Positions 4,843-21,498 of a stretch of 64,000 bases of DNA are shown here, one piece after another. This DNA comes from Candidatus Omnitrophota bacterium (GTDB lineage Bacteria; Omnitrophota; Gorgyraeia; Zapsychrales; JANLHA01): contig OY759724.1 of the NCBI GenBank assembly GCA_963662715.1, positions 2,714,662 through 2,778,661 on the forward strand, in the 5' to 3' direction. A program made the translations under genes and the position numbers. Under the pieces are notes generated by a model that saw only the letters and a program-made list of their open reading frames with translations, ran no database searches and had not been told where the DNA came from. Numbering within the stretch: position 1 is the stretch's first letter; every line of letters starts with the position of its first letter.

Positions 4843-5655
4843 ATGAAAAATTTTTATCTGGTATTACTATTTATTTGTATTTTTTATGGGGGGATCCCGT
4901 CTCCGGCGGAAGCCCAACTGGTCCTGCAGAAGAGTGTCGTCCAACACGATATCCCGAAGGGCGGGACTGTCGTTGATTCTTTTGATGTCACTAACAGCAC
5001 CAACAAGCCTTTAGGGATAAAATTGTACTGGCAGGATTTTATTTATAAAGCTCCTTACGACAAGGGGGCAAAAGATTTTATGCCGGCGGGGACATCCGAT
5101 TATTCCTGTGCGGATATGGTGACCTTCAGCCCCACAAATCTGACGTTGCCGCCGTTCGGCAAGGAGAATATCAAATATTCTTTCAAAACCCCTGAAGATT
5201 TCCAGGGGGGCTGTGATGGCGTGCTCTTTTTTGAAATGGACCGGGATGTCAGTAAGGCCAAAATGGGCATGAGTTTTGTGACGCGTATCGGGGCGCTGTT
5301 TTTCCTGGAATCAACGGATAAAGATAAAACGGCTGATGTGAAAGATTTTTCTTTCGATCAGGCCCGTCTGCAGGGGTCCTTTCATAATCAGGGGAATATT
5401 GTTCTTTTCCCCAAAGGCATTTATTATATTCTCAATGAGGACGGTCTGGTGGAGGACCGGGGCGAGGTGAACAAGCTTTATATCCCTCCCGGCGCCAGAG
5501 CCGACTTTCATTTTTCTGTGCCGGAAGCGTTGGATGCCGGGACCTATACGGTTGTCCTGACGTTCGATCTTGACGGCGGGGACAGTATTGTTAAAGAAGC
5601 TGATTTCACGAAAAGTCCTGCCGGGGCTTTTCGTCTTATCGCCACAAGGGATTGA
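4843..5655 (+). CDS. Secreted protein with PapD-like periplasmic chaperone motif and Csu-like C-terminal strand
   Basis: Signal peptide; VTNSTNKPLGIKLYWQDF resembles the PapD N-domain N..NK.P.L.Q.W motif; C-terminal DAGTYTVVLTF. Confidence 0.4.
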   Translation: MKNFYLVLLFICIFYGGIPSPAEAQLVLQKSVVQHDIPKGGTVVDSFDVTNSTNKPLGIKLYWQDFIYKAPYDKGAKDFMPAGTSDYSCADMVTFSPTNLTLPPFGKENIKYSFKTPEDFQGGCDGVLFFEMDRDVSKAKMGMSFVTRIGALFFLESTDKDKTADVKDFSFDQARLQGSFHNQGNIVLFPKGIYYILNEDGLVEDRGEVNKLYIPPGARADFHFSVPEALDAGTYTVVLTFDLDGGDSIVKEADFTKSPAGAFRLIATRD

Positions 5656-5818
5656 TGGTTTTTGCGTAAAATATATAAGATAAGGTGGTGAATGTATTTC
5701 TGTGTTTCGATTTCACGTCCAAGTTCCATGTTCATTGCCGTAATGCGCTGAGCGTGAAATTGATGCTTGCTCACAAAGTAGAATATTATGCACAGGAGCC
5801 GCAGAATAGCCGTCGGGT

Positions 5819-8554
5819 ATGACAAAACTTTCGTTGGGGATTCTTATAGCCGCATTATTAGCTGTCTTTTTTTGCGGAACAAGCTATGCAGACTCGGAGA
5901 CAGATTACCATTATTACATGGTCCTGGGGATCAGAGCTTTTGATAAAGGTTTCTATGATAAAGCGATTTGGTATTTTGAAGAAGCCCAGGCTGTAGACCC
6001 TACCAAAAGCACTCCTTTAAAATATATCAAGCTTATTAAACGGTTCAAGGAAGGCCGTTTGTCTGTTGTTCAGCCGCCCGTTCGGCAGAAAAAAGGGGCG
6101 CCCACACCCGTTGCGCAGGAAAAGTCCGTCATTGAACAGCACCTTGCGACATCCCGAAAAATGATCGAAGCTAAAGACATGGTCCTGCAGCCTAAGGAGG
6201 CTGAAGTTCTTGTCCTGAATGATCAGTTCTGGTCTCTGCAGCCTAACCTGGAACTGGAAATTGAAACGAACAAGGTTTATGTTTTTCAGGGACAAAATGT
6301 CAAACGTTTTTTAAGTGTCAAAGAAGGCGTGCTGGATGTCGACCGTCTTGATAAGGACCGTATCAGCATATCAGCCAAGAACCGCGCATCGACATTTTTC
6401 CATGTCTGGGACGACCGCGGACGCTGGACTTTTCATGTCCAGGGGAAGCTCCCGGTTCTTTATCAGAATACCCGGGCTCAACAGTTTAAGGATACAGGGA
6501 TGGAAGACAATCCTCCTTTAAAGATAGCTTATTCTAATAACTGGGGGGCTATTTATCGGGGCAACAGTATTCCGGACATGGAACGTTCGAGTTTGACATT
6601 TACCCAGTGGGTCGGGACACACGGAAGAATCCCATACGGAAACTTTGATGCCTCCATGAATTTTTACAAATATGCAGAATCCACGGAAAGAATCGGTGAA
6701 CGGATGGGCTTGGGGGACGGACGCATCGGCCCGTTTAAGGATTTTAATATACGCGGCTTTGATACCGAAGTCTATTTGTCGGATTTCTCCGTGCCGGGGC
6801 GAAGCTTCCGAGGGGTGCGGTTTGACAGTTACGCATTTAACCGGAGATTGAATTATACATTATTTCAGGGGCAGGACAGGGCCCAGTTCCTTTTTATCAG
6901 CCCTTCCATTCTGGATGTCCGTAAGACCTATATTGAAGGCGCCAGTGCCACCTTGTTCCCGGACAGTGACCATAACTACACGATTAATTACGCCCGGGGC
7001 TACGGAGACTACCGGGATAACTTTTTGAAAAATAAAGCATTTTCTGCTGAAACCGAACATAAGTTTTATAATTTAAAGGTCTCCGGGGAAGTGGGGTACG
7101 ATGAAGACGTCTATAGCGAAGTTATACGGACAGAATTTAAAAGATATAATCACACTCTGAATGTGAATGTCCGCGATATTCATAAGGATTATGTTACCGT
7201 TGTCGGACGCCCTTCCGGCCGGGGGGAAGCCGGCGGGAATATCCGTTATAATTTGAAACTGGAAAAGACGCGTTTTAATTCCAACCTCGACGTTTACCGG
7301 AACCGCTATCTGAACAACCCTGAACAGGACGGGGTGAATTTTGACTGGAACGGCTCCATGAATCATACCTTGTCTTCCAGCTCTTCCTGGTCCGCGGCAG
7401 CATTTGTCTCCTATACGCCGCAGCTTGTTTCCCCGCATCAAAGCATGAGCCTGACAAACTATTATCATAAAAGGTTCCCTTTCCTCTACGGTCAGGCCAT
7501 GTCGATGTCTTTGGGGCATTCTTTCCAGAGAAATCGTTATGAAGAATCTCCCTTCGCGGAATTTGACCGCAACACGTTATCGGCGGGCTTTAGAATCCCG
7601 CTGTTCCCGGACGTGGGTTTTTTTGCCAATTATGATTACTCTTTTGTCCATAATATCCAGGAAGACCTGCAGACTTATCCCCAGGTCTTCACAGCCGGCG
7701 TGGACTATAATAAAACCCTGTATAATCATGTCATCGGCCGGTGGAGCCTCCGTTATCGTAATGAGGAAAATGCCACCGGTCAGTTCAGTTTTTTATCGGG
7801 AGAAGATTCGATCCGGGGAACAGTGGGCCTCAGTTACCGCCCGAATCCCGGTTTTGAAATTTACCTGGACAGTAATGTCCGCAGTGTCTGGACAGAGGAC
7901 CCGGATAACCCCGCTTTTAATGATGCCGATGTCCGAATCGGTTTTCGCTCCAGTTGGGACACGTTCTTCCATTGGAATCCCACCGGGATTTTCCAGGGAC
8001 GGGTCTTTAATGATAGCAACGGCAATGCCCGGTACGACCCGGGGGAAGAGGGGCTGGCTGACATTGGGGTGAAAGTCGGAGATAAGACCGTTAGGACCAA
8101 CAGCCGGGGAGAGTATTTTGCCACGGTCAGGGCGAAAAAAGTGCGTGTCGCTTTGGATCTGGGATCTTTACCCATGGGATACATCAATTCAGACGGTTTT
8201 ATGCGGGATATTGTCGTGGAACATAGACAGGTTAATGCGGTTGACTTTGGCCTGACCAGCCAGGCCGGGATTTACGGTGTCGTTTATATCGACCGGAACC
8301 TGACCGGAACGCTGGATCAGGGAGATGAGTTTATCGCAAGGGCGAAGATTATCCTTGATGGACAGCATGTCGCGTACAGTGATTTTGAAGGGACATACAG
8401 CTTTGATAACATTAAACCCGGTCAACATGTCATCTCGATCGATATCAATTCTCTTCCGCTCCAATATATCCCGCTTATCAAGCTCAACAATGAGATTGAA
8501 GTCGGGGAAGGGATCACGTATGTTTTTAATATCCCGTTAAAGGAAGGAAAATAA
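5819..8554 (+). CDS. Large outer-membrane protein: TPR-like N-terminus, CpaC/secretin-N-like beta domain, Tyr/Asn/Gly/Arg-rich putative beta-barrel, two C-terminal CarboxypepD_reg-like domains
   Basis: Signal peptide; segment VLVLNDQFWSLQP...RFLSVKEGVLDVDRLDKDRISISAKNRASTFFHVWDD resembles the CpaC N-domain; aromatic-rich alternating beta pattern; C-terminal SNGNARYDPGEEGLADIGVKVGDKTVRTNSRGEYF. Confidence 0.5.
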   Translation: MTKLSLGILIAALLAVFFCGTSYADSETDYHYYMVLGIRAFDKGFYDKAIWYFEEAQAVDPTKSTPLKYIKLIKRFKEGRLSVVQPPVRQKKGAPTPVAQEKSVIEQHLATSRKMIEAKDMVLQPKEAEVLVLNDQFWSLQPNLELEIETNKVYVFQGQNVKRFLSVKEGVLDVDRLDKDRISISAKNRASTFFHVWDDRGRWTFHVQGKLPVLYQNTRAQQFKDTGMEDNPPLKIAYSNNWGAIYRGNSIPDMERSSLTFTQWVGTHGRIPYGNFDASMNFYKYAESTERIGERMGLGDGRIGPFKDFNIRGFDTEVYLSDFSVPGRSFRGVRFDSYAFNRRLNYTLFQGQDRAQFLFISPSILDVRKTYIEGASATLFPDSDHNYTINYARGYGDYRDNFLKNKAFSAETEHKFYNLKVSGEVGYDEDVYSEVIRTEFKRYNHTLNVNVRDIHKDYVTVVGRPSGRGEAGGNIRYNLKLEKTRFNSNLDVYRNRYLNNPEQDGVNFDWNGSMNHTLSSSSSWSAAAFVSYTPQLVSPHQSMSLTNYYHKRFPFLYGQAMSMSLGHSFQRNRYEESPFAEFDRNTLSAGFRIPLFPDVGFFANYDYSFVHNIQEDLQTYPQVFTAGVDYNKTLYNHVIGRWSLRYRNEENATGQFSFLSGEDSIRGTVGLSYRPNPGFEIYLDSNVRSVWTEDPDNPAFNDADVRIGFRSSWDTFFHWNPTGIFQGRVFNDSNGNARYDPGEEGLADIGVKVGDKTVRTNSRGEYFATVRAKKVRVALDLGSLPMGYINSDGFMRDIVVEHRQVNAVDFGLTSQAGIYGVVYIDRNLTGTLDQGDEFIARAKIILDGQHVAYSDFEGTYSFDNIKPGQHVISIDINSLPLQYIPLIKLNNEIEVGEGITYVFNIPLKEGK

Positions 8555-14455: not shown

Positions 14456-14602
14456 AGATGACTCTTTAATGATTGTCATAGTGTTTCCGGGTTTGTCCTT
14501 GTCCAAGGTTGTCCGGCTCTGTCATGTTGACAATTTTATCAAAATGCATTAAAAAGTGTGAGGCTAAAACTTCAAAACCGTAACAATGCAGAAGGGATAA
14601 GC

Positions 14603-15457
14603 ATGAATTTCAATACGTTACTGGGGTACTTTGAAGAAGCGCAAGGATTCAAACATATTCAAGAGGTTATTTGTATCCTGTGCGGAGCCTCTTTGGAAAT
14701 CCGATCTTTGGACGGCCGGATTTTTAAATGCAACTTTTCCCCCTCTCTGAGTAAAAAATCCTATGAAAGCAAAGCAGATTTTCATGTCGATTGCCAGCAC
14801 CGCTCGGAAGCGTGCAAGTGTCTTGTTTCAAATATAATAGAGAAGGCAACGATTTCCGGCCAGACCCAGATCAATAAATGTCAGGCCGGCCTCACGCAGA
14901 TATTATTGCCCATTCATATCAGAAAGGAAATCGTCGGTTATCTCATCGTCCTTGAAAATCAGTTCTTCCGACTCAGCTATGTGCAGATCAAAGCGATTAT
15001 TAATCTGCTGGAGAATTTTATCAAGGATATTCAGGCTGAGCTCGACCTGTTCCCGAATTTAAAGAAAGACAACCTGAGTTATCAGCAAATGATCGTTCAC
15101 AAGGTTGTGCAGTATATTAGCGAACATTATCATCAGCCGGAACTTACTCTTAAACAGGTTTCGGAGGCCAACGGCATCAGTTATCATTATTTAAGCCGTT
15201 TAATCAAAAAGGTCCTGAAAACGACCTTTTCTCAGTATTTGAATCAAACGAGGCTGGAAGTCGCTTCGCGTCTTCTGCAGAACCGCAGTTTGTCGGTCAG
15301 TGAGATCGCCTATACCTGCGGTTACGAAGATCCGGGATATTTTTGCAAGCTATTCAAAAGAATGTACGGGAAATCCCCCGGGATATTCCGGCTGAATCCT
15401 CCCAATAGAATCTCTTCTCCCAAGGTAAAACAGAGACTGTTTCCGGCCAGATCCTGA
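14603..15457 (+). CDS. AraC-family transcriptional regulator with N-terminal sensory (PocR-like) domain
   Basis: C-terminal AraC HTH (SQYLNQTRLEVASRLLQN...GYEDPGYFCKLFKRMYGKSP); ATG at 14603 with AAGGGA SD preferred over the upstream GTG at 14558. Confidence 0.75.
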   Translation: MNFNTLLGYFEEAQGFKHIQEVICILCGASLEIRSLDGRIFKCNFSPSLSKKSYESKADFHVDCQHRSEACKCLVSNIIEKATISGQTQINKCQAGLTQILLPIHIRKEIVGYLIVLENQFFRLSYVQIKAIINLLENFIKDIQAELDLFPNLKKDNLSYQQMIVHKVVQYISEHYHQPELTLKQVSEANGISYHYLSRLIKKVLKTTFSQYLNQTRLEVASRLLQNRSLSVSEIAYTCGYEDPGYFCKLFKRMYGKSPGIFRLNPPNRISSPKVKQRLFPARS

Positions 15458-15881: not shown

Positions 15882-18218
15882 ATGAAAAAATTATTAATTT
15901 GGATTTTAGCAATAGCTTTTGCAGCATATCCGGTGGCCGGTTATGCCGAAAGCATCGCTCTTTCTGATTCAGAAATGGATGAGATTGCAGCGGGTGAATG
16001 GGTGGTTCTTGCTGAAGGCGAAACTGTTGAAGATGTTTTTTTCAGCCAGAACGAACTCCAGTCCACTGACGGTTCCCTGAATGAAGTGTCAGGTTTGAGC
16101 GTTGTAAACAGTGTTGACAGTGCGGTTGCCGTGCAGGCTAACGTCGGCAATTCCGAAGATTTGGCGGAAGTTGAAGCCAATCAGGCCAACGAAGCCAACG
16201 TGCTCAACATGAATCCTTCGGTTGACAACTCAACTTCGAACACGGTCACCAACATCACTGAGCAGGATCAAGTGAATGCCTGGTCCAAAGAGACATCGAC
16301 AACGGTCACTTTCTCTCATGAAGATGAAAACAATACCCAGATTTACGACAATGAGCAGTCATCTTCAGCCAACAGCTCTTCCGAATCCACATCAGCGACT
16401 TTAGATGCATCCGCTTCCGGATCTGCCTCATCTCAGGAAGAGCAGTCTGGTTCAACAACAGACTCAACTCTAAACGAAAATCATACAGCCAACACAGATA
16501 ACACGGCTTTCCAGTATGACTATTCGGATGACACAACTTTTGATCTGGATGCTCAAGAGCAAGATTCATCTGCTTCTACGGCTGACACTCAAGAAGAAGA
16601 GTCCACATCGGCCAGTTTAGATGTGCAGGCCGATTATTCTGACAGTGCTGCTGAACAGTCAGAAGAGTCCACATCAGCGAGTTTAGATACACAAGCTGAT
16701 TATGCTAACAGTTCTGCTGAACAATCAGAAGAGTCCACATCAGCCGGTTTAGACGTGCAGGCCGATTATTCTGACAGTGCTGCTGAACAATCAGAAGAAT
16801 CCACATCAGCTAGCTTGGATACTCAATCCGAATATTCTGACAGTTCTGCTTTTGACGCCAACGCCAGTCAATCAGCGCAGGCTGAAAGCAGCTCCCAATC
16901 AGAAGACAGCACATCAGCAACTTTGGATGCCAACCTGTCCGCTTCCGAAAGTGCATCAGAGCAGGCTGCAGCCGAAGACGCGACATCAGCTTCCTTGAAC
17001 GCTGATGCGCAGTATTCTGACAGCGCAACAACGGATTCCACAACTGATTTTTCAGCGACTGAAGGAGAAACAACAGCAAGTTCACAAAGTGTTGACGGAA
17101 CTTATAATCAGACCACAGACACTTGCGCAGATTGTGACACCTCCACAACGACTTTTGAGGGAACAGCTGCCACAAGTGACTATTCTGACAGCAAAGATTA
17201 CACCGCGGGCACAACAGCCGGTACAACGGAAAACACAGATGCTTCTGGTTCGCTTGCCGGGACATATGATGCTTCTTCGGCAGAGTCCAGTTCAGCAGAG
17301 TCCAGCAGTGAAGCCTCAGGTGGGTTAAATGCCACTTATGATGATTCTTCTTCTGAATCCGCGAGCGAAGCTTCTTCTTCAGATGCTTCAGGATCAGTTG
17401 CTGCGTCTAATGACACAACAGCATCAGGTTCTTTGAATGCCGCTTATGATGATTCAGCTTCTTCATCTTCTTCAGAAGACACAACAGCGTCAGGTTCTTT
17501 GAATGCTTCCTACGATGATTCAGCTTCTTCTGCTGCTTCAGAAGACACGACAGCGTCCAATTCTTTGAACGCCGCCTACGATGATTCAGCTTCTTCATCT
17601 TCTTCAGAAGACACAACAGCATCAGGTTCTTTGAATGCTTCCTATGATGATTCTTCTTCCGCATCTACTTCCGAAGCCGAATCATCTGATTCTTCATCAA
17701 GCTTGGTTGTCGGTTACACAGATGCTGATTCAGAATCTGTTGCTGCTTCTCATGATGTTGCTGCATCCACAGATAATATCAACACCACAGACCATGCTGA
17801 TGAACACAGCTCATCATCATCAAACAGTTTCGAAGCTGAAGGCGCTTTATCTACATCTTTTGATCATGAAGAAGAGCAGGCCTCCGAATCAGCAGAAGCC
17901 CGCAACAATGATGAATTCAAAGATGAATACGAAAAGACGGAAGTGTCTTTTGAGACAAAAGATACTGAAGCAACAACTAATGATGCTTCTCAGGTTCTCA
18001 CCAACATCACTGAAACGAAAAACACAGATCGCAAGAACAAGAGTGAAAAGAATGTGTTGATCATTTCCGGTTCATCACAGTCCGGAGTCAGCTCGTTGAG
18101 CACAGTGAATGCTGTTGGTTCAGCTGTTGCCGTTCAGTCCAACGTTATTAATGCCACAGGCAGTTTGACTGGTTCTATCAACCAATCAAATATTGCGAAT
18201 GTGACAAACGGTCTTTAA
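15882..18218 (+). CDS. Secreted highly acidic Ser/Asp/Thr-rich repeat protein with N/Q/V/A-rich curli/Fap-like terminal repeats (candidate major fibre subunit)
   Basis: Signal peptide ...PVAGYA; N-terminal LSVVNSVDSAVAVQANVGNS...NQANEANVLN and C-terminal LSTVNAVGSAVAVQSNVINATG...NQSNIANVTNGL repeats; ~600-aa low-complexity acidic middle; ATG at 15882 preceded by GAGGAA. Confidence 0.6.
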   Translation: MKKLLIWILAIAFAAYPVAGYAESIALSDSEMDEIAAGEWVVLAEGETVEDVFFSQNELQSTDGSLNEVSGLSVVNSVDSAVAVQANVGNSEDLAEVEANQANEANVLNMNPSVDNSTSNTVTNITEQDQVNAWSKETSTTVTFSHEDENNTQIYDNEQSSSANSSSESTSATLDASASGSASSQEEQSGSTTDSTLNENHTANTDNTAFQYDYSDDTTFDLDAQEQDSSASTADTQEEESTSASLDVQADYSDSAAEQSEESTSASLDTQADYANSSAEQSEESTSAGLDVQADYSDSAAEQSEESTSASLDTQSEYSDSSAFDANASQSAQAESSSQSEDSTSATLDANLSASESASEQAAAEDATSASLNADAQYSDSATTDSTTDFSATEGETTASSQSVDGTYNQTTDTCADCDTSTTTFEGTAATSDYSDSKDYTAGTTAGTTENTDASGSLAGTYDASSAESSSAESSSEASGGLNATYDDSSSESASEASSSDASGSVAASNDTTASGSLNAAYDDSASSSSSEDTTASGSLNASYDDSASSAASEDTTASNSLNAAYDDSASSSSSEDTTASGSLNASYDDSSSASTSEAESSDSSSSLVVGYTDADSESVAASHDVAASTDNINTTDHADEHSSSSSNSFEAEGALSTSFDHEEEQASESAEARNNDEFKDEYEKTEVSFETKDTEATTNDASQVLTNITETKNTDRKNKSEKNVLIISGSSQSGVSSLSTVNAVGSAVAVQSNVINATGSLTGSINQSNIANVTNGL
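16590..16860 (+). repeat. Tandem array, 4 near-identical 66-bp units (22-aa EESTSASLDVQADYSDSAAEQS) plus a degenerate fifth
   Basis: Unit motif GAGTCCACATC recurs at 16599, 16665, 16731 and 16797 (period 66). Confidence 0.85.
17412..17675 (+). repeat. Tandem array, 4 x 66-bp units (22-aa DTTASGSLNAAYDDSASSSSSE); units 1/3 and 2/4 are pairwise most similar (132-bp higher-order repeat)
   Basis: GACACAACA/GACACGACA recur at 17412, 17478, 17544 and 17610. Confidence 0.85.
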
Positions 18219-18229
18219 TAAGTAATAAA

Positions 18230-18281
18230 AGGGTTGGGGGGAGGCATCTCCCCTCAACCCTGATTTTAAATGATGGTTTTT
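18230..18281 (+). terminator. Intrinsic terminator-like hairpin (12-bp G/C-rich stem incl. one G-U) followed by T-rich tract; candidate partial terminator or attenuator after the major subunit gene
   Basis: aGGGTTGGGGGg aggcatct CCCCTCAACCCT then GATTTTAAATGATGGTTTTT. Confidence 0.5.
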
Positions 18282-18300: not shown

Positions 18301-18756
18301 ATGTCTAGAAAGATAGGGTTTCTACTATTAAGTGTAGTTTTTCTGAATATGATTATCAACCCTGTGTTTGCAGATGGAAACGCAGTCGTCCTGTCTGATG
18401 AAGAGTTGGATCAAGTATATGCGCAGGGATTTAATTTTAATTTTGATGAGTTTCTGGGAAATCTGGACAGCATTCTTTCTTCTCCTGACCTAAAAGTTGA
18501 TTTAGATTTAGCCAAGGGTGGAACCGTGACTTTTACCGGTGATTCCGGAGTAGAGCAGCAGATATTTGCTACAGAAACCGGTGATATCAATTATATCAAT
18601 TTGCAAGATTATGCCCAGCAATTTGCCAATAGTCTGATCAATGTGAATGCCGCAGGAAGCAATGTCCTGGTCGGGTTAAATTTGACCGTCCTCGTCAATT
18701 CGGTTGTGAACGGGGACATCAAAAGTTATAATTTCAATAACAACAGTTCCAGGTAA
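18301..18756 (+). CDS. Small secreted paralog of the 15882 protein (candidate nucleator or minor subunit)
   Basis: Signal peptide; shares N-terminal LSDEELDQV motif and C-terminal N/V/A/G-rich repeat (NSLINVNAAGSNVLVGLNLTVLVNSVVNGD) with the large repeat protein. Confidence 0.55.
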   Translation: MSRKIGFLLLSVVFLNMIINPVFADGNAVVLSDEELDQVYAQGFNFNFDEFLGNLDSILSSPDLKVDLDLAKGGTVTFTGDSGVEQQIFATETGDINYINLQDYAQQFANSLINVNAAGSNVLVGLNLTVLVNSVVNGDIKSYNFNNNSSR

Positions 18757-18815: not shown

Positions 18816-19499
18816 ATGAATAATAAAATTTTTATAATTTTAAGTGTTTTTTACCTTTTTGTTGCTCCCGGCCATGCGGCTAGCATTTCGGTGGGGGGCG
18901 TCAGTATAAACAAAAAGGTCAAAAATTTAAAAGAGCTTCGTCAGGAAAATGTTGTCACGCAAAGCCTTGATTATAGTTGCGGGGCCGCGGGTTTGTCGAC
19001 CCTTTTGAATTATTATTTGAATGATCCTACCCCTGAAATCGTTATCATCGATGCCCTGCTCAAAACCATCCCTTTGCAAAAAGTGCAAGCACGCCAGGGA
19101 TTCTCTTTATTCGATTTAAAGAAATTCGCGGAATCCAGAGGATACCAGGTAACCGGGTATAAGATGGACTTCGAATTTTTAAAATCCATAGGCAAACCGC
19201 TTCTTGTCCCGATAAAATTCAAGAATTACCGGCATTTTGTCGTGGTTAAAGGTGTTGTCGGTGACAGGGTTTTTATCGCCGATCCGGCCGTAGGGAATAT
19301 GACAATGAAAGATGAAAAGTTCAAAGCCATTTGGACCAACGGCATCGGCTTTGTGGTTGAGCATCCGGAAGGCTCAAGGAACGAAGATTATGCTTTGCGT
19401 ATTGAAAATGAAGATGTCCGTATGGCGAATTATCAATCCTTGAAGCGTCTCACCAGTCCTGCCTGGGTCCGGACAGCAATATTTACAAACGAATGGTGA
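18816..19499 (+). CDS. Stand-alone periplasmic C39-family (bacteriocin-processing-type) cysteine peptidase, FapD-like
   Basis: Sec signal peptide; QSLDYSCGAAGLSTLLNYY matches the C39 catalytic Cys context; ~227 aa with no ABC transporter fusion. Confidence 0.7.
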   Translation: MNNKIFIILSVFYLFVAPGHAASISVGGVSINKKVKNLKELRQENVVTQSLDYSCGAAGLSTLLNYYLNDPTPEIVIIDALLKTIPLQKVQARQGFSLFDLKKFAESRGYQVTGYKMDFEFLKSIGKPLLVPIKFKNYRHFVVVKGVVGDRVFIADPAVGNMTMKDEKFKAIWTNGIGFVVEHPEGSRNEDYALRIENEDVRMANYQSLKRLTSPAWVRTAIFTNEW

Positions 19500-19505
19500 T
19501 CTTTT

Positions 19506-20966
19506 ATGCGTTTTAACCGAATATTATCAACAATATTGGTAGTGCTTTTCGTATGCTTTTTTGGGGTCTTCGTGTCCCGGTCGCGCCTTAGATATCCGGA
19601 AATTGATTTGACCGCTATTAAAAGGCAGTTAAGGGAGGAGATTAAAGACGAATTGCGCGCCGAACTGCTGCTTGAAATGGGAGATGTCATAACCCGGGAA
19701 GTTCAAAAAGAGGTTCATCTTTATCTTGCGCAGATACACAAGCAAAAGGCTGATACAGAAAAGTATAGCCATTTGCAGCCCTCTGCTTCCTATGATGATG
19801 CTCTTGCCCGCAATTCCCTGACCCAGCAAGAGGAAAGAGAAACGATTCGGGAGGCTATCCAGCGGACGGTACGTGACGTCGTTCAGGAATACAATGCACA
19901 GCTTTCTGATGAGGAATTAGCCGCAACCGTAGCCAGCGGCGGACTTGATCCTGCGGTGACTCTTCCGGGCAGTTTGTCAAAAACCGTACAGGATGACCCT
20001 GTCCTGTTAGCGGCGGCCGAGGCATCCGCGGGGAGCCAAAAGCAGACATCCTCTTCTCAGCCGGTTCCCGTGAATTCAAAAGACGCGACAGCCGGTTCCA
20101 ATTCCGGTAAAGTTGATTCTATTGAAAGGACATTGGTCCAAAAGGGAAGCATCCTCTTGCCTAAGGGGAGATTGCAGTTTGAACCCAGCCTGACCTATGC
20201 GCATTCCTCTTCCAACCGGCTATACATCGACGGCTTTAGTATCCTTCCGGTCCTTGTGGTCGGCGATATCTCTACAGAAAAAGTGCAGCGGGACGTTTTC
20301 ATTAATACCTGGACATTCAAATACGGTTTAAGGCACAACCTGCAGACAGAAGTCAGGGTTCCTGTCCGGTTTGAATATGACCGCATTACGAACACCGACA
20401 GCACAACGTTTGACCAGACGGATAATAAAGGCGGCCTGGGCGATATCCAGGTTTCTGTGAGCCGCCAGATCGGGTGGGAACACGGTCTCATCCCGGATTT
20501 GGTCGCGAATCTATCGGTGAAGTCCAATACCGGGGATGAACCTTACAATACGGATATTGCCTTGGGAACCGGGCACTGGGCTGTCAGCGGGGCTCTGGTT
20601 GCGGCCAAGGCCAGCGATCCTGCTGTTATTTTTGGCAGTTTGAATTATACGTATAATATCCCCCGCAGCGATATCGAAAACTACGGAAAAATAGACCCGG
20701 GAGACTCGATAGGTTACAGTTTGGGAACCGCCATCGCGTTGAGTTATCAAACAGCCATCAATTTTTCATTTGATCATTCTATTACCGATAAAATGGTCAG
20801 GAACGGCCAAAAGGTCCCCGGCTCTTTCCTGAATGCCGCTAATTTCAAGACCGGTTTTAACTGGGCTTTGAATGAACGGGCTTCCGTGGATTGTTCTCTC
20901 AGCTTTGGCTTGACTCAGGATTCTCCTGATTTCACATTTGAACTCCGTTTCCCGTATAATTTCTGA
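19506..20966 (+). CDS. Outer-membrane beta-barrel protein with N-terminal coiled-coil domain (FapF-like architecture)
   Basis: Signal peptide; ~100-aa E/K/R/L-rich predicted coiled coil; Ser/Ala/Gln-rich linker; C-terminal alternating beta pattern ending FELRFPYNF; starts 7 nt after the C39 gene stop. Confidence 0.5.
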   Translation: MRFNRILSTILVVLFVCFFGVFVSRSRLRYPEIDLTAIKRQLREEIKDELRAELLLEMGDVITREVQKEVHLYLAQIHKQKADTEKYSHLQPSASYDDALARNSLTQQEERETIREAIQRTVRDVVQEYNAQLSDEELAATVASGGLDPAVTLPGSLSKTVQDDPVLLAAAEASAGSQKQTSSSQPVPVNSKDATAGSNSGKVDSIERTLVQKGSILLPKGRLQFEPSLTYAHSSSNRLYIDGFSILPVLVVGDISTEKVQRDVFINTWTFKYGLRHNLQTEVRVPVRFEYDRITNTDSTTFDQTDNKGGLGDIQVSVSRQIGWEHGLIPDLVANLSVKSNTGDEPYNTDIALGTGHWAVSGALVAAKASDPAVIFGSLNYTYNIPRSDIENYGKIDPGDSIGYSLGTAIALSYQTAINFSFDHSITDKMVRNGQKVPGSFLNAANFKTGFNWALNERASVDCSLSFGLTQDSPDFTFELRFPYNF

Positions 20967-21102: not shown

Positions 21103-21498
21103 ATGAACAGAAAGTTTTGCGCATTCTCGTTGATTCTTCTGAGCCTTGGCCTTGTATCGATCGTGAACATTGGTCAAGGGGCGGATTTAACGCGGCCTAA
21201 GGGCCAGCAGGAGAAGGAATGCCGTGTCCAGAATTGTCACGGGCTCGAAATCCAATGCGGTTTCAGTGAACCCAAAGTGTGTACCGAGATGTATCAGTTG
21301 GGTGATTTTTGCCGCGCCTTTGCTGAATGTCGTTTTATAAAAGGTGAGTGTCAGTTTGTGAACAATGATCTTTTCCAGGGATGCAAAGACTGCGTTTTGG
21401 ATTGCGAACGCAATAAAGATGAGATCAATCCGTTTATTTGTGAGGTCAAATGCCGGAAGGAATTTGAGCCGTATATTTATGGAAAACCCCTTAATTGA
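21103..21498 (+). CDS. Small secreted cysteine-rich protein (14 Cys in ~105 mature residues)
   Basis: Signal peptide MNRKFCAFSLILLSLGLVSIVNIGQG; Cys spacing consistent with multiple disulfides. Confidence 0.45.
   Translation: MNRKFCAFSLILLSLGLVSIVNIGQGADLTRPKGQQEKECRVQNCHGLEIQCGFSEPKVCTEMYQLGDFCRAFAECRFIKGECQFVNNDLFQGCKDCVLDCERNKDEINPFICEVKCRKEFEPYIYGKPLN

Follow-up and report, generated by a model that had tools for sequence, protein, structure and literature searches.

Candidate double-glycine-type leaders directly behind the Sec signal peptides of two proteins encoded beside a periplasmic C39 peptidase and a FapF-like barrel in Omnitrophota

We analysed a 64,000-nucleotide stretch of DNA from Candidatus Omnitrophota bacterium (contig OY759724.1, positions 2,714,662 to 2,778,661; hereafter the window, whose own numbering is used throughout), with a focus on two predicted secreted proteins that share a motif resembling the leaders of double-glycine peptides. 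Open reading frame (ORF) calling revealed a cassette of four co-oriented genes on the + strand. These encoded a leader-bearing, candidate cargo protein of 778 amino acids (aa) (class 1; 15882..18218), a small leader-bearing protein of 151 aa (class 2; 18301..18756), a stand-alone C39 cysteine peptidase of 227 aa that resembles FapD and FilB and has its own signal peptide (18816..19499), and a FapF-like outer-membrane β-barrel of 486 aa with an N-terminal coiled-coil/linker region (19506..20966). In both genes upstream of the peptidase, the leader motif started 4-6 residues past the Sec-type signal peptide.

The 778-aa gene was preceded by a Shine-Dalgarno sequence (AGGA, 7 nt upstream) and its product began with a predicted Sec signal peptide, M1-A22 (MKKLLIWILAIAFAAYPVAGYA, ...AGYA↓E; 15882..15947, + strand), the n-h-c organisation of which was read from the sequence. 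A predicted 16-residue propeptide, ESIALSDSEMDEIAAG, followed (15948..15995, + strand), after which the protein continued with EWVV. The core leader motif was LSDSEMDEIAAG (15960-15995, + strand), with a full read of MKKLLIWILAIAFAAYPVAGYA↓ESIA-LSDSEMDEIAAG-EW, and the C39 cut was predicted after Gly38 (AAG↓EW; AAG↓E in the motif-spanning segment ESIALSDSEMDEIAAGEWVVLA). The same arrangement was found in the 151-aa protein, with a signal peptide read from the sequence as M1-A24 (MSRKIGFLLLSVVFLNMIINPVFA, ...PVFA↓D; 18301..18372, + strand), a propeptide region DGNAVVLSDEELDQVYAQG followed by FNFNF (18373..18429, + strand), and, within that region, a predicted propeptide of 18-19 residues, DGNAVVLSDEELDQVYAQ(G). 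Its core motif was LSDEELDQVYAQG (18391-18429, + strand), with a full read of MSRKIGFLLLSVVFLNMIINPVFA↓DGNAVV-LSDEELDQVYAQG-FNF. Here, the C39 cut was predicted after Q42 in the canonical register or after G43, i.e., AQ↓G or AQG↓F in the segment DGNAVVLSDEELDQVYAQGFNFNF. An initial annotation of this DNA had placed the motif directly behind the Sec signal peptide of both proteins, and the translation agreed with it exactly; the length of 779 aa that it gave for the large protein was corrected to 778 aa (779 codons including the stop). Within the whole window (241 ORFs, 36,038 aa), the strict motif occurred in these two proteins only, and the signal-peptide/leader stretch was their sole significant similarity to each other by BLASTP. 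No Pfam or NCBIfam model covered the leader or either protein, including the 778-aa protein as a whole.

The peptidase was a member of family C39 (Pfam PF03412, 3.3e-23, 82.4 bits for a cut-off of 22). Its best NCBIfam match was FilB (3.1e-41, 141.6 bits, cut-off 475), and it also matched FapD (4.3e-32, 111.2 bits, cut-off 330; 424.8 bits for a true FapD). The best sequence match in the PDB was LahT150 (6mpz, 2.4e-09), in an alignment that paired the catalytic Cys, His, and Asp of the two enzymes. An AF2 model of the peptidase (predicted local distance difference test, pLDDT, of 82) had ComA (3k8u) as its top Foldseek match (TM 0.85, rmsd 2.1 Å) and was also superposed on the peptidase domains of PCAT1 and LahT150; 3zua and 7sgr were among the other fold matches. 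We verified the codons of the oxyanion residue Gln49 (18960-18962) and of the catalytic residues Cys55 (18978-18980), His140 (19233-19235), and Asp156 (19281-19283), all on the + strand. These four residues were invariant in 82 out of 82 peptidases, which suggests that the peptidases are active enzymes rather than Cys-less binding domains of the kind found in RTX exporters. Loss of the catalytic His or Asp, which the initial annotation had regarded as fatal to its proposal, was thus not observed.

The enzyme is not a peptidase-containing transporter of the ATP-binding cassette (ABC) type (PCAT; also ABC transporter maturation and secretion, AMS), since it has only 227 aa and its own signal peptide, and only the peptidase region of ABC models matched it. 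No ABC gene was present in the cassette. The description of the peptidase as having a signal peptide and no transporter was therefore right as regards the signal peptide and ABC exporters, but left out the adjoining FapF-like barrel. This barrel matched NCBIfam FapF (5e-45, 154 bits, cut-off 700) and FilC (3.1e-19, 69.6 bits, cut-off 630), as well as the FapF structures 5o65/5o67 over residues 210-486 (5e-32), and is presumed to be the translocator.

To place the motif in a broader context, we scanned the six-frame ORFs of 80 unrelated genome loci, which had been picked by peptidase similarity alone and independently of the motif. The first 110 aa of same-strand ORFs adjoining the peptidase served as positives, and the N-termini of other-strand or distant ORFs as controls. 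A strict regular expression gave 112 matches beside the peptidase versus none in about 476,000 control residues, with at least one match in 65 out of the 80 loci. A looser expression gave 144 matches versus 14 in 422,370 control aa and recovered most of the remaining loci, leaving four without a match (L003, L021, L073, and L029); in the first three of these, a contig end lay close to the peptidase. Moreover, 140 of the 144 looser matches were located 0-22 residues behind a signal-peptide h-region (at least 9 consecutive uncharged residues). The motif thus occurs beside these peptidases far more often than expected by chance. According to the record labels, the loci came from Omnitrophota, 'Planctomycetales' metagenome-assembled genomes, Acidobacteriota, Geobacter/Thermodesulfobacteriota, Nitrospirota, Armatimonadota, and Gammaproteobacteria, and the pairing of the leader with a periplasmic C39 peptidase extended to at least six phyla. 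In 76 of 82 loci, the next gene downstream of the peptidase encoded a FapF-like barrel.

The class 2 family was conserved, its members being encoded next to the peptidase, on the upstream side, in several phyla. In six close homologues of the 151-aa protein, the motif was invariant or nearly so, and one of them carried a true GG (YAGG). An exhaustive profile search yielded 128 family representatives at 50% identity, of which 100 had the strict motif directly behind the signal peptide; the other 28 were mostly N-terminally truncated fragments or deviated at P-1 alone (K, H, or M). The family hidden Markov model also matched equivalent small proteins of Acidobacteriota (L026), Marinobacter (L065), and Armatimonadota (L057), and orthologues of the 778-aa protein bearing the same leader were found in L001, L002, and other loci.

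The AF2 model of the 151-aa protein was poor as a whole (pLDDT 67, predicted template-modelling score 0.25); it showed a helix at leader residues 33-38 (block pLDDT 84), with low confidence elsewhere. The C-terminal part of the protein (residues ~100-145) formed a module common to the small class 2 proteins, AQQ.L..LVNVNAAGS.V.V..NL.V.INS, that was repeated in larger leader-bearing proteins, with 13 stretches in one of them (P0342). Akin to this module, VN.V.SAVAVQ.NV segments flanked the acidic core of the 778-aa protein. The module may be a unit of polymerisation or of barrel recognition.

We then derived a logo from about 140 unique instances, aligned in the classical double-glycine register. 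The most conserved positions were P-12 (L, 84-88%), P-10 (D, 91-98%), P-7 (L/M, ~100%), P-6 (D, 85-98%), P-4 (V/I, ~99%), P-2 (A, 97-98%), and P-1 (G or A, 86-96%). For LahT150, the last 13 residues of the leader are enough for recognition, with the hydrophobic residues -12, -7, and -4 docking into a hydrophobic groove; the -8 residue of double-glycine leaders is usually Glu, and these determinants form a helix that is read by the peptidase (PMC6363468). The hydrophobic positions conserved in our logo were the same three, each occupied by a hydrophobic residue in ~100% of instances. Indeed, the hydrophobic and acidic determinants were present in both window leaders, as L-12/E-8/M-7/I-4 in the 778-aa protein and L-12/E-8/L-7/V-4 in the 151-aa protein. 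The ligand co-crystallised with LahT150 was Ac-NLSDDELEGVAGG, a ProcA leader segment (PMC6363468). A comparison of LSDSEMDEIAAG with LSDDELEGVAGG showed identity at positions -12, -11, -10, -8, -3, and -1, and conservative replacements at -7, -6, -4, and -2.

Residues -2/-1 were A-G in the 778-aa protein, and A-Q (canonical register) or Q-G (register shifted by one) in the 151-aa protein. Of the two replacements of GG that had initially been annotated, AG was therefore retained, whereas QG requires a register one residue off, the family register being A-Q with Gly at P+1. Across 226 unique leaders (L001-L080 and P0247-P0372), 222 had Gly at P-1 or P+1, giving 'A-G-x' or 'A-x-G'. Leaders with a bulky P-1 residue (Q/E/K/H/R) had Gly at P+1. 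A single scissile register for all substrates was rejected, because neither the canonical register nor the +1 register gave small residues at both P-2 and P-1 throughout. Either these periplasmic enzymes tolerate a range of residues in the S1 pocket, or the cut site shifts by one residue.

For comparison with a characterised system, a genuine Pseudomonas fapABCDEF operon was retrieved starting from the sequence of the FapF crystal structure (NCBIfam: FapD 425 bits, FapE 354 bits). Its FapE (UK4-like, L081) carried the module directly behind the signal peptide, as MNTYRWLTVLCLAASMPAYA↓SSAFKPIE-MKDSELAELRGR-FVMPGR, with M-12, D-10, E-8, L-7, L-4, and G-2 in the register of the window leaders and a predicted bond RGR↓F in the segment SSAFKPIEMKDSELAELRGRFVMPGR. 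FapA, FapB, and FapC of the same operon lacked the motif. All 79 of 79 Pseudomonas fap loci retrieved from metagenomes by FapD similarity conformed to [LMIV]-x-D-x-E-[LM]-x-x-L-R-G-R↓[YF]VMPGR. In Aeromonas, FapE read LADGELAHLRGR↓Y, the pattern common to both genera being ...DSELAELRGR↓F/Y..., and in FapE-like proteins of Nitrospirota and Croceicoccus, the leader ended in a canonical RGG↓. In Acinetobacter baumannii, FilA exhibited a degenerate form of the leader (...SANAMA↓MQS-MDDAALSAATGQ-DGI). Overall, the leader recurred on otherwise unrelated proteins, namely the window pair, FapE, the FapE-like proteins of Aeromonas and Croceicoccus, and FilA. That FapE and FilA carry the same module implies that FapD and FilB work likewise.

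Published data on the Fap system bear on this point. FapD is located in the periplasm, FapC secretion depends on Cys38 of this enzyme, and loss of either FapD activity or FapE stops secretion (PMC5557850). FapE was the sole Fap protein without N-terminal peptides in mass spectrometry (MS): in Supplementary Data 6, its first peptide started at residue 72 and was seen once, the next ones starting at 97-100 (PMC5557850). If L081 FapE were left uncut, the N-terminal tryptic peptides expected to be detectable would be those of the leader itself, SSAFKPIEMK and DSELAELR, while the tryptic peptide following FVMPGR would be ~50 residues long. Because the missing peptides are those of the leader, the published data fit its removal at the motif. 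The suggestion in the initial annotation that such a site might also apply to FapD-like peptidases is in line with the presence of the module in FapE and with the lack of any FapE peptide before residue 72. Processing of FapE was presumed in a 2018 review and in a review of December 2025, in the latter of which FapD is 'thought to' process FapE.

The window cassette and the Fap system have in common a homologous periplasmic C39 peptidase and a trimeric-type barrel encoded side by side, as well as a leader module, borne in Fap by FapE. However, FapE is encoded downstream of the peptidase and alone carries the leader, whereas in the window both candidate cargo proteins carry it and are encoded upstream. 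In addition, the FapE site is R-G-[RG], compared with A-[GA] in the window family, and the scores of the window peptidase and barrel fell well short of the equivalog cut-offs for FapD and FapF, although homology to FapF was clear nonetheless. No FapA, FapB, FapC, FapE, or FapBC repeat domain was detected by Pfam or NCBIfam among all window proteins. The 151-aa protein was tried as a FapE homologue and rejected, its BLASTP comparison with FapE not being significant. As a speculation, the small class 2 protein could be a FapE-like pilot or anchor and the large acidic protein the bulk cargo. The Fil system, a putative pilus encoded by filABCDEF in A. baumannii, includes FilB, the nearest NCBIfam family of the window peptidase, and FilA, in which a signal peptide is followed by the degenerate leader MDDAALSAATGQ. 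Unlike the window leaders, that of FilA has Ala at -4 and G-Q at -2/-1; moreover, the window proteins scored below the FilB and FilC cut-offs, and FilD, FilE, and FilF of the Fil operon, as compared with A. baumannii L163, were absent from the window.

Two further loci differed in organisation. On the Cupriavidus metallidurans CH34 megaplasmid (L164), the ORF at 5459-5947 and an ORF downstream of the peptidase contained a leader-like ...L..[VS]RGG↓ about 95-130 residues in, which suggests much longer propeptides in that lineage. In Neisseria gonorrhoeae (L166), a stand-alone C39 peptidase relative of 196 aa was found at 5962-6552, with no obvious FapF-like barrel or leader-bearing neighbour among same-strand ORFs of at least 100 aa. 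The PLSDB 'plasmids' also include whole chromosomes that are almost unannotated, such as those of A. baumannii (4.09 Mb; L163, NZ_CP104448.1), Aeromonas caviae (4.94 Mb), and N. gonorrhoeae (2.17 Mb).

With the leaders of AMS/PCAT systems (LahT150-ProcA, ComA-ComC, and PCAT1-CtA), the window leaders share a recognition unit of 12-13 residues in which positions -12, -7, and -4 are hydrophobic and -8 is acidic (LSDSEMDEIAAG versus NLSDDELEGVAGG), that of the 778-aa protein also having small residues at -2 and -1; the window peptidase has the fold and the Gln/Cys/His/Asp set of their peptidases. In those systems, however, a cytoplasmic precursor begins with the leader, whereas here the leader stands behind a Sec signal peptide of 22-24 residues. 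Likewise, the peptidase is there a domain of an ABC exporter at the cytoplasmic face, the cargo is a small peptide, and P-2 is Gly; in the present systems, the peptidase is a free, predicted periplasmic protein with its own signal peptide, the cargo ranges from 150 to 1000 aa, and P-2 is Ala with a relaxed P-1. Another point of comparison is offered by the small EbfG proteins of Synechococcus elongatus, which function in biofilms and carry a GG secretion motif (PMC4997328). They, too, are proteins of a matrix or biofilm, and they rely on a double-glycine motif for export (PMC4997328). Their route would, by implication, be the classical cytoplasmic ABC one, without a Sec signal, a periplasmic peptidase, or a FapF-type barrel.

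Among the remaining features of the locus, a transcriptional regulator of the AraC/PocR type was encoded upstream of the operon (14558..15457, + strand; Pfam HTH_18, 2.7e-22, and PocR sensory domain, 2e-07) and is a possible regulator of it. The 778-aa protein was strongly acidic and rich in Ser, Thr, Asp, and Glu (22% Ser and 19% Asp + Glu; 147 D + E versus 13 K + R), and its gene contained two tandem arrays (16595-16850 and 17412-17676), each with about four copies of a 66-bp (22-aa) unit. A scan for terminator-like structures detected a GC-rich hairpin with a 14-bp stem (9 GC pairs) and a T-rich tail (18230..18261, + strand), which started 12 nt past the stop codon of the 778-aa gene and preceded the 151-aa gene; it is a possible intra-operon attenuator or terminator, and resembles the attenuators that set the stoichiometry of major subunits in fimbrial operons. 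Just downstream of the barrel gene, we observed a Cys-rich protein of 131 aa with a signal peptide and no family match (21103-21498).

Taken together, these results make it likely that the two motifs are double-glycine-type leaders that have come to act on the periplasmic instead of the cytoplasmic side of the inner membrane, where the proteins, once exported by Sec, would have the leader removed by the C39 peptidase and be handed over to the barrel. The initial annotation had proposed the core of this idea, a double-glycine-type leader behind a Sec signal for an adjacent periplasmic C39 peptidase, and the comparative evidence backs it. Sec would export both precursors, and signal peptidase I would cut them at AGYA↓E and PVFA↓D, leaving an N-terminal propeptide of 16-19 residues. 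The last 12 residues of this propeptide, L-S-D-x-E-[LM]-D-x-[IV]-x-A-[G/x], would form a short amphipathic helix, whose Leu-12, Leu/Met-7, and Val/Ile-4 would be read by the periplasmic peptidase through a hydrophobic groove, as in LahT150, ComA, and PCAT1. The cut would then fall after small residues, at Gly38 in the 778-aa protein and at Gln42 or Gly43 in the 151-aa protein. These steps are suggested by sequence and comparative evidence. In a further step, which we infer by analogy with PCATs and from Fap genetics, the leader would direct the protein, as an address tag, to the peptidase and its partner, the FapF-like barrel, and leader removal would be coupled to passage of the unfolded protein to the barrel for translocation across the outer membrane.

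Several observations weigh against this model. Leader cleavage is, for all members, something that we infer from the sequences, and the signal peptides were assigned by eye and with a simple heuristic. The P-1 residue was bulky (Q/E/K/H/R) in 53 of the 226 unique leaders, and is Arg in FapE; C39 enzymes prefer Gly, Ala, or Ser at P-1, so that a bulky residue there is unusual. Curated models of double-glycine leaders (bacteriocin double-glycine, Nif11, and NHLP; Pfam and NCBIfam/TIGRFAM) did not match the full window proteins, and ten isolated leader segments searched against NCBIfam and Pfam at E-values up to 10 gave no match other than that of FapE-type segments to FapE. In the Fap system, the gap in the MS data of FapE (residues 21-71) is also compatible with a cut further downstream. 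Finally, because the main Fap cargo proteins, FapB and FapC, are without the motif, the leader is not required for every passenger of a FapF-type barrel.

The most serious alternative is that the motif is an uncleaved targeting or chaperone-binding tag, by which the peptidase or the coiled-coil of the barrel holds or delivers unfolded cargo, while catalysis is aimed elsewhere, for example at the linker of the FapF-like barrel. RTX exporters do have C39-like domains that have lost the catalytic Cys and bind substrates without cutting them, and 3zua and 7sgr, among the fold matches of the window peptidase, bring such domains to mind. The frequent bulky residues at P-1 would also be easier to accept in a tag of this kind, and the FapF linker was considered as a FapD target by Rouse et al. 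(PMC5557850). However, none of the 82 peptidases deviates at Cys, His, Asp, or Gln, the small P-2 residue (98% Ala) and the Gly at P-1 or P+1 (222 of 226 leaders) would have no reason in a pure binding tag, and the N-terminus of FapE is missing in vivo. We therefore regard an uncleaved tag as unlikely. It is more improbable still that the motif is unrelated to the peptidase and has a structural or assembly role in the secreted proteins once mature, for instance as a helix or strand at the N-terminus that takes part in polymerisation. The proteins do resemble fibre or matrix subunits, with their repeats and N/Q/S-rich C-terminal modules, and AF2 predicted a short helix at the motif. Nevertheless, the motif was common to proteins that are otherwise dissimilar, always stood directly behind the signal peptide, was found only beside C39 peptidase genes, and reproduces the residues by which a C39 leader of known structure is recognised.

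A third possibility, that the signal peptides are unused and that cytoplasmic precursors leave through a classical PCAT encoded elsewhere, has in its favour a motif typical of such substrates, but we consider it very improbable. The leader would have to be internal, behind 22-30 hydrophobic residues, and to our knowledge no PCAT substrate has such an internal leader. Furthermore, the adjacent peptidase has a signal peptide and no ABC domain, the cassette with its outer-membrane barrel was kept in 76 of 82 loci, and FapD has been shown to act in the periplasm (PMC5557850). As for a chance resemblance to the LSxxELxxIxGG consensus, the motif is short and acidic Leu-rich segments are common; this explanation was nonetheless refuted by the enrichment test, with no match in ~476,000 control residues versus 112 in the predicted place and a distribution over at least six phyla, and we give it almost no credence.

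The C39 peptidase, the FapF-type barrel, and the double-glycine leader are each known; the apparent novelty lies in the way they are combined, in the leader having been identified, and in how general it is. A search of open-access full-text literature, with subscription-only papers outside its reach, returned no description of the arrangement of a Sec signal plus a double-glycine leader or of the FapE motif. We see about an even chance that the tandem of a Sec signal peptide and a double-glycine-type leader is a common sorting and activation signal of widespread two-step outer-membrane secretion systems, composed of a periplasmic C39 peptidase and a FapF-type barrel, in Omnitrophota, Acidobacteriota, Desulfobacterota/Thermodesulfobacteriota, Nitrospirota, Armatimonadota, and Pseudomonadota. 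In these systems, cleavage would be coupled to barrel loading as a periplasmic counterpart of the PCAT mechanism, and FapE (cut near R40↓F41) and FilA would be the substrates of FapD and FilB.

Secretion of the Fap amyloid requires FapD-type peptidases, whose substrate and cut site have long been an open question. The motif supplies an exact, testable site for the window operon, for FapE of Pseudomonas and Aeromonas, and for FilA of the pathogen A. baumannii. It could also serve as a sequence signature to find the cargo of otherwise unannotated systems, as a handle to block the secretion of biofilm matrix, and possibly as a portable tag for outer-membrane secretion. More generally, at least six phyla would have put to new use, in the periplasm and behind a Sec signal, a leader and a peptidase that are known as a pair from ABC exporters, where they act at the cytoplasmic face.

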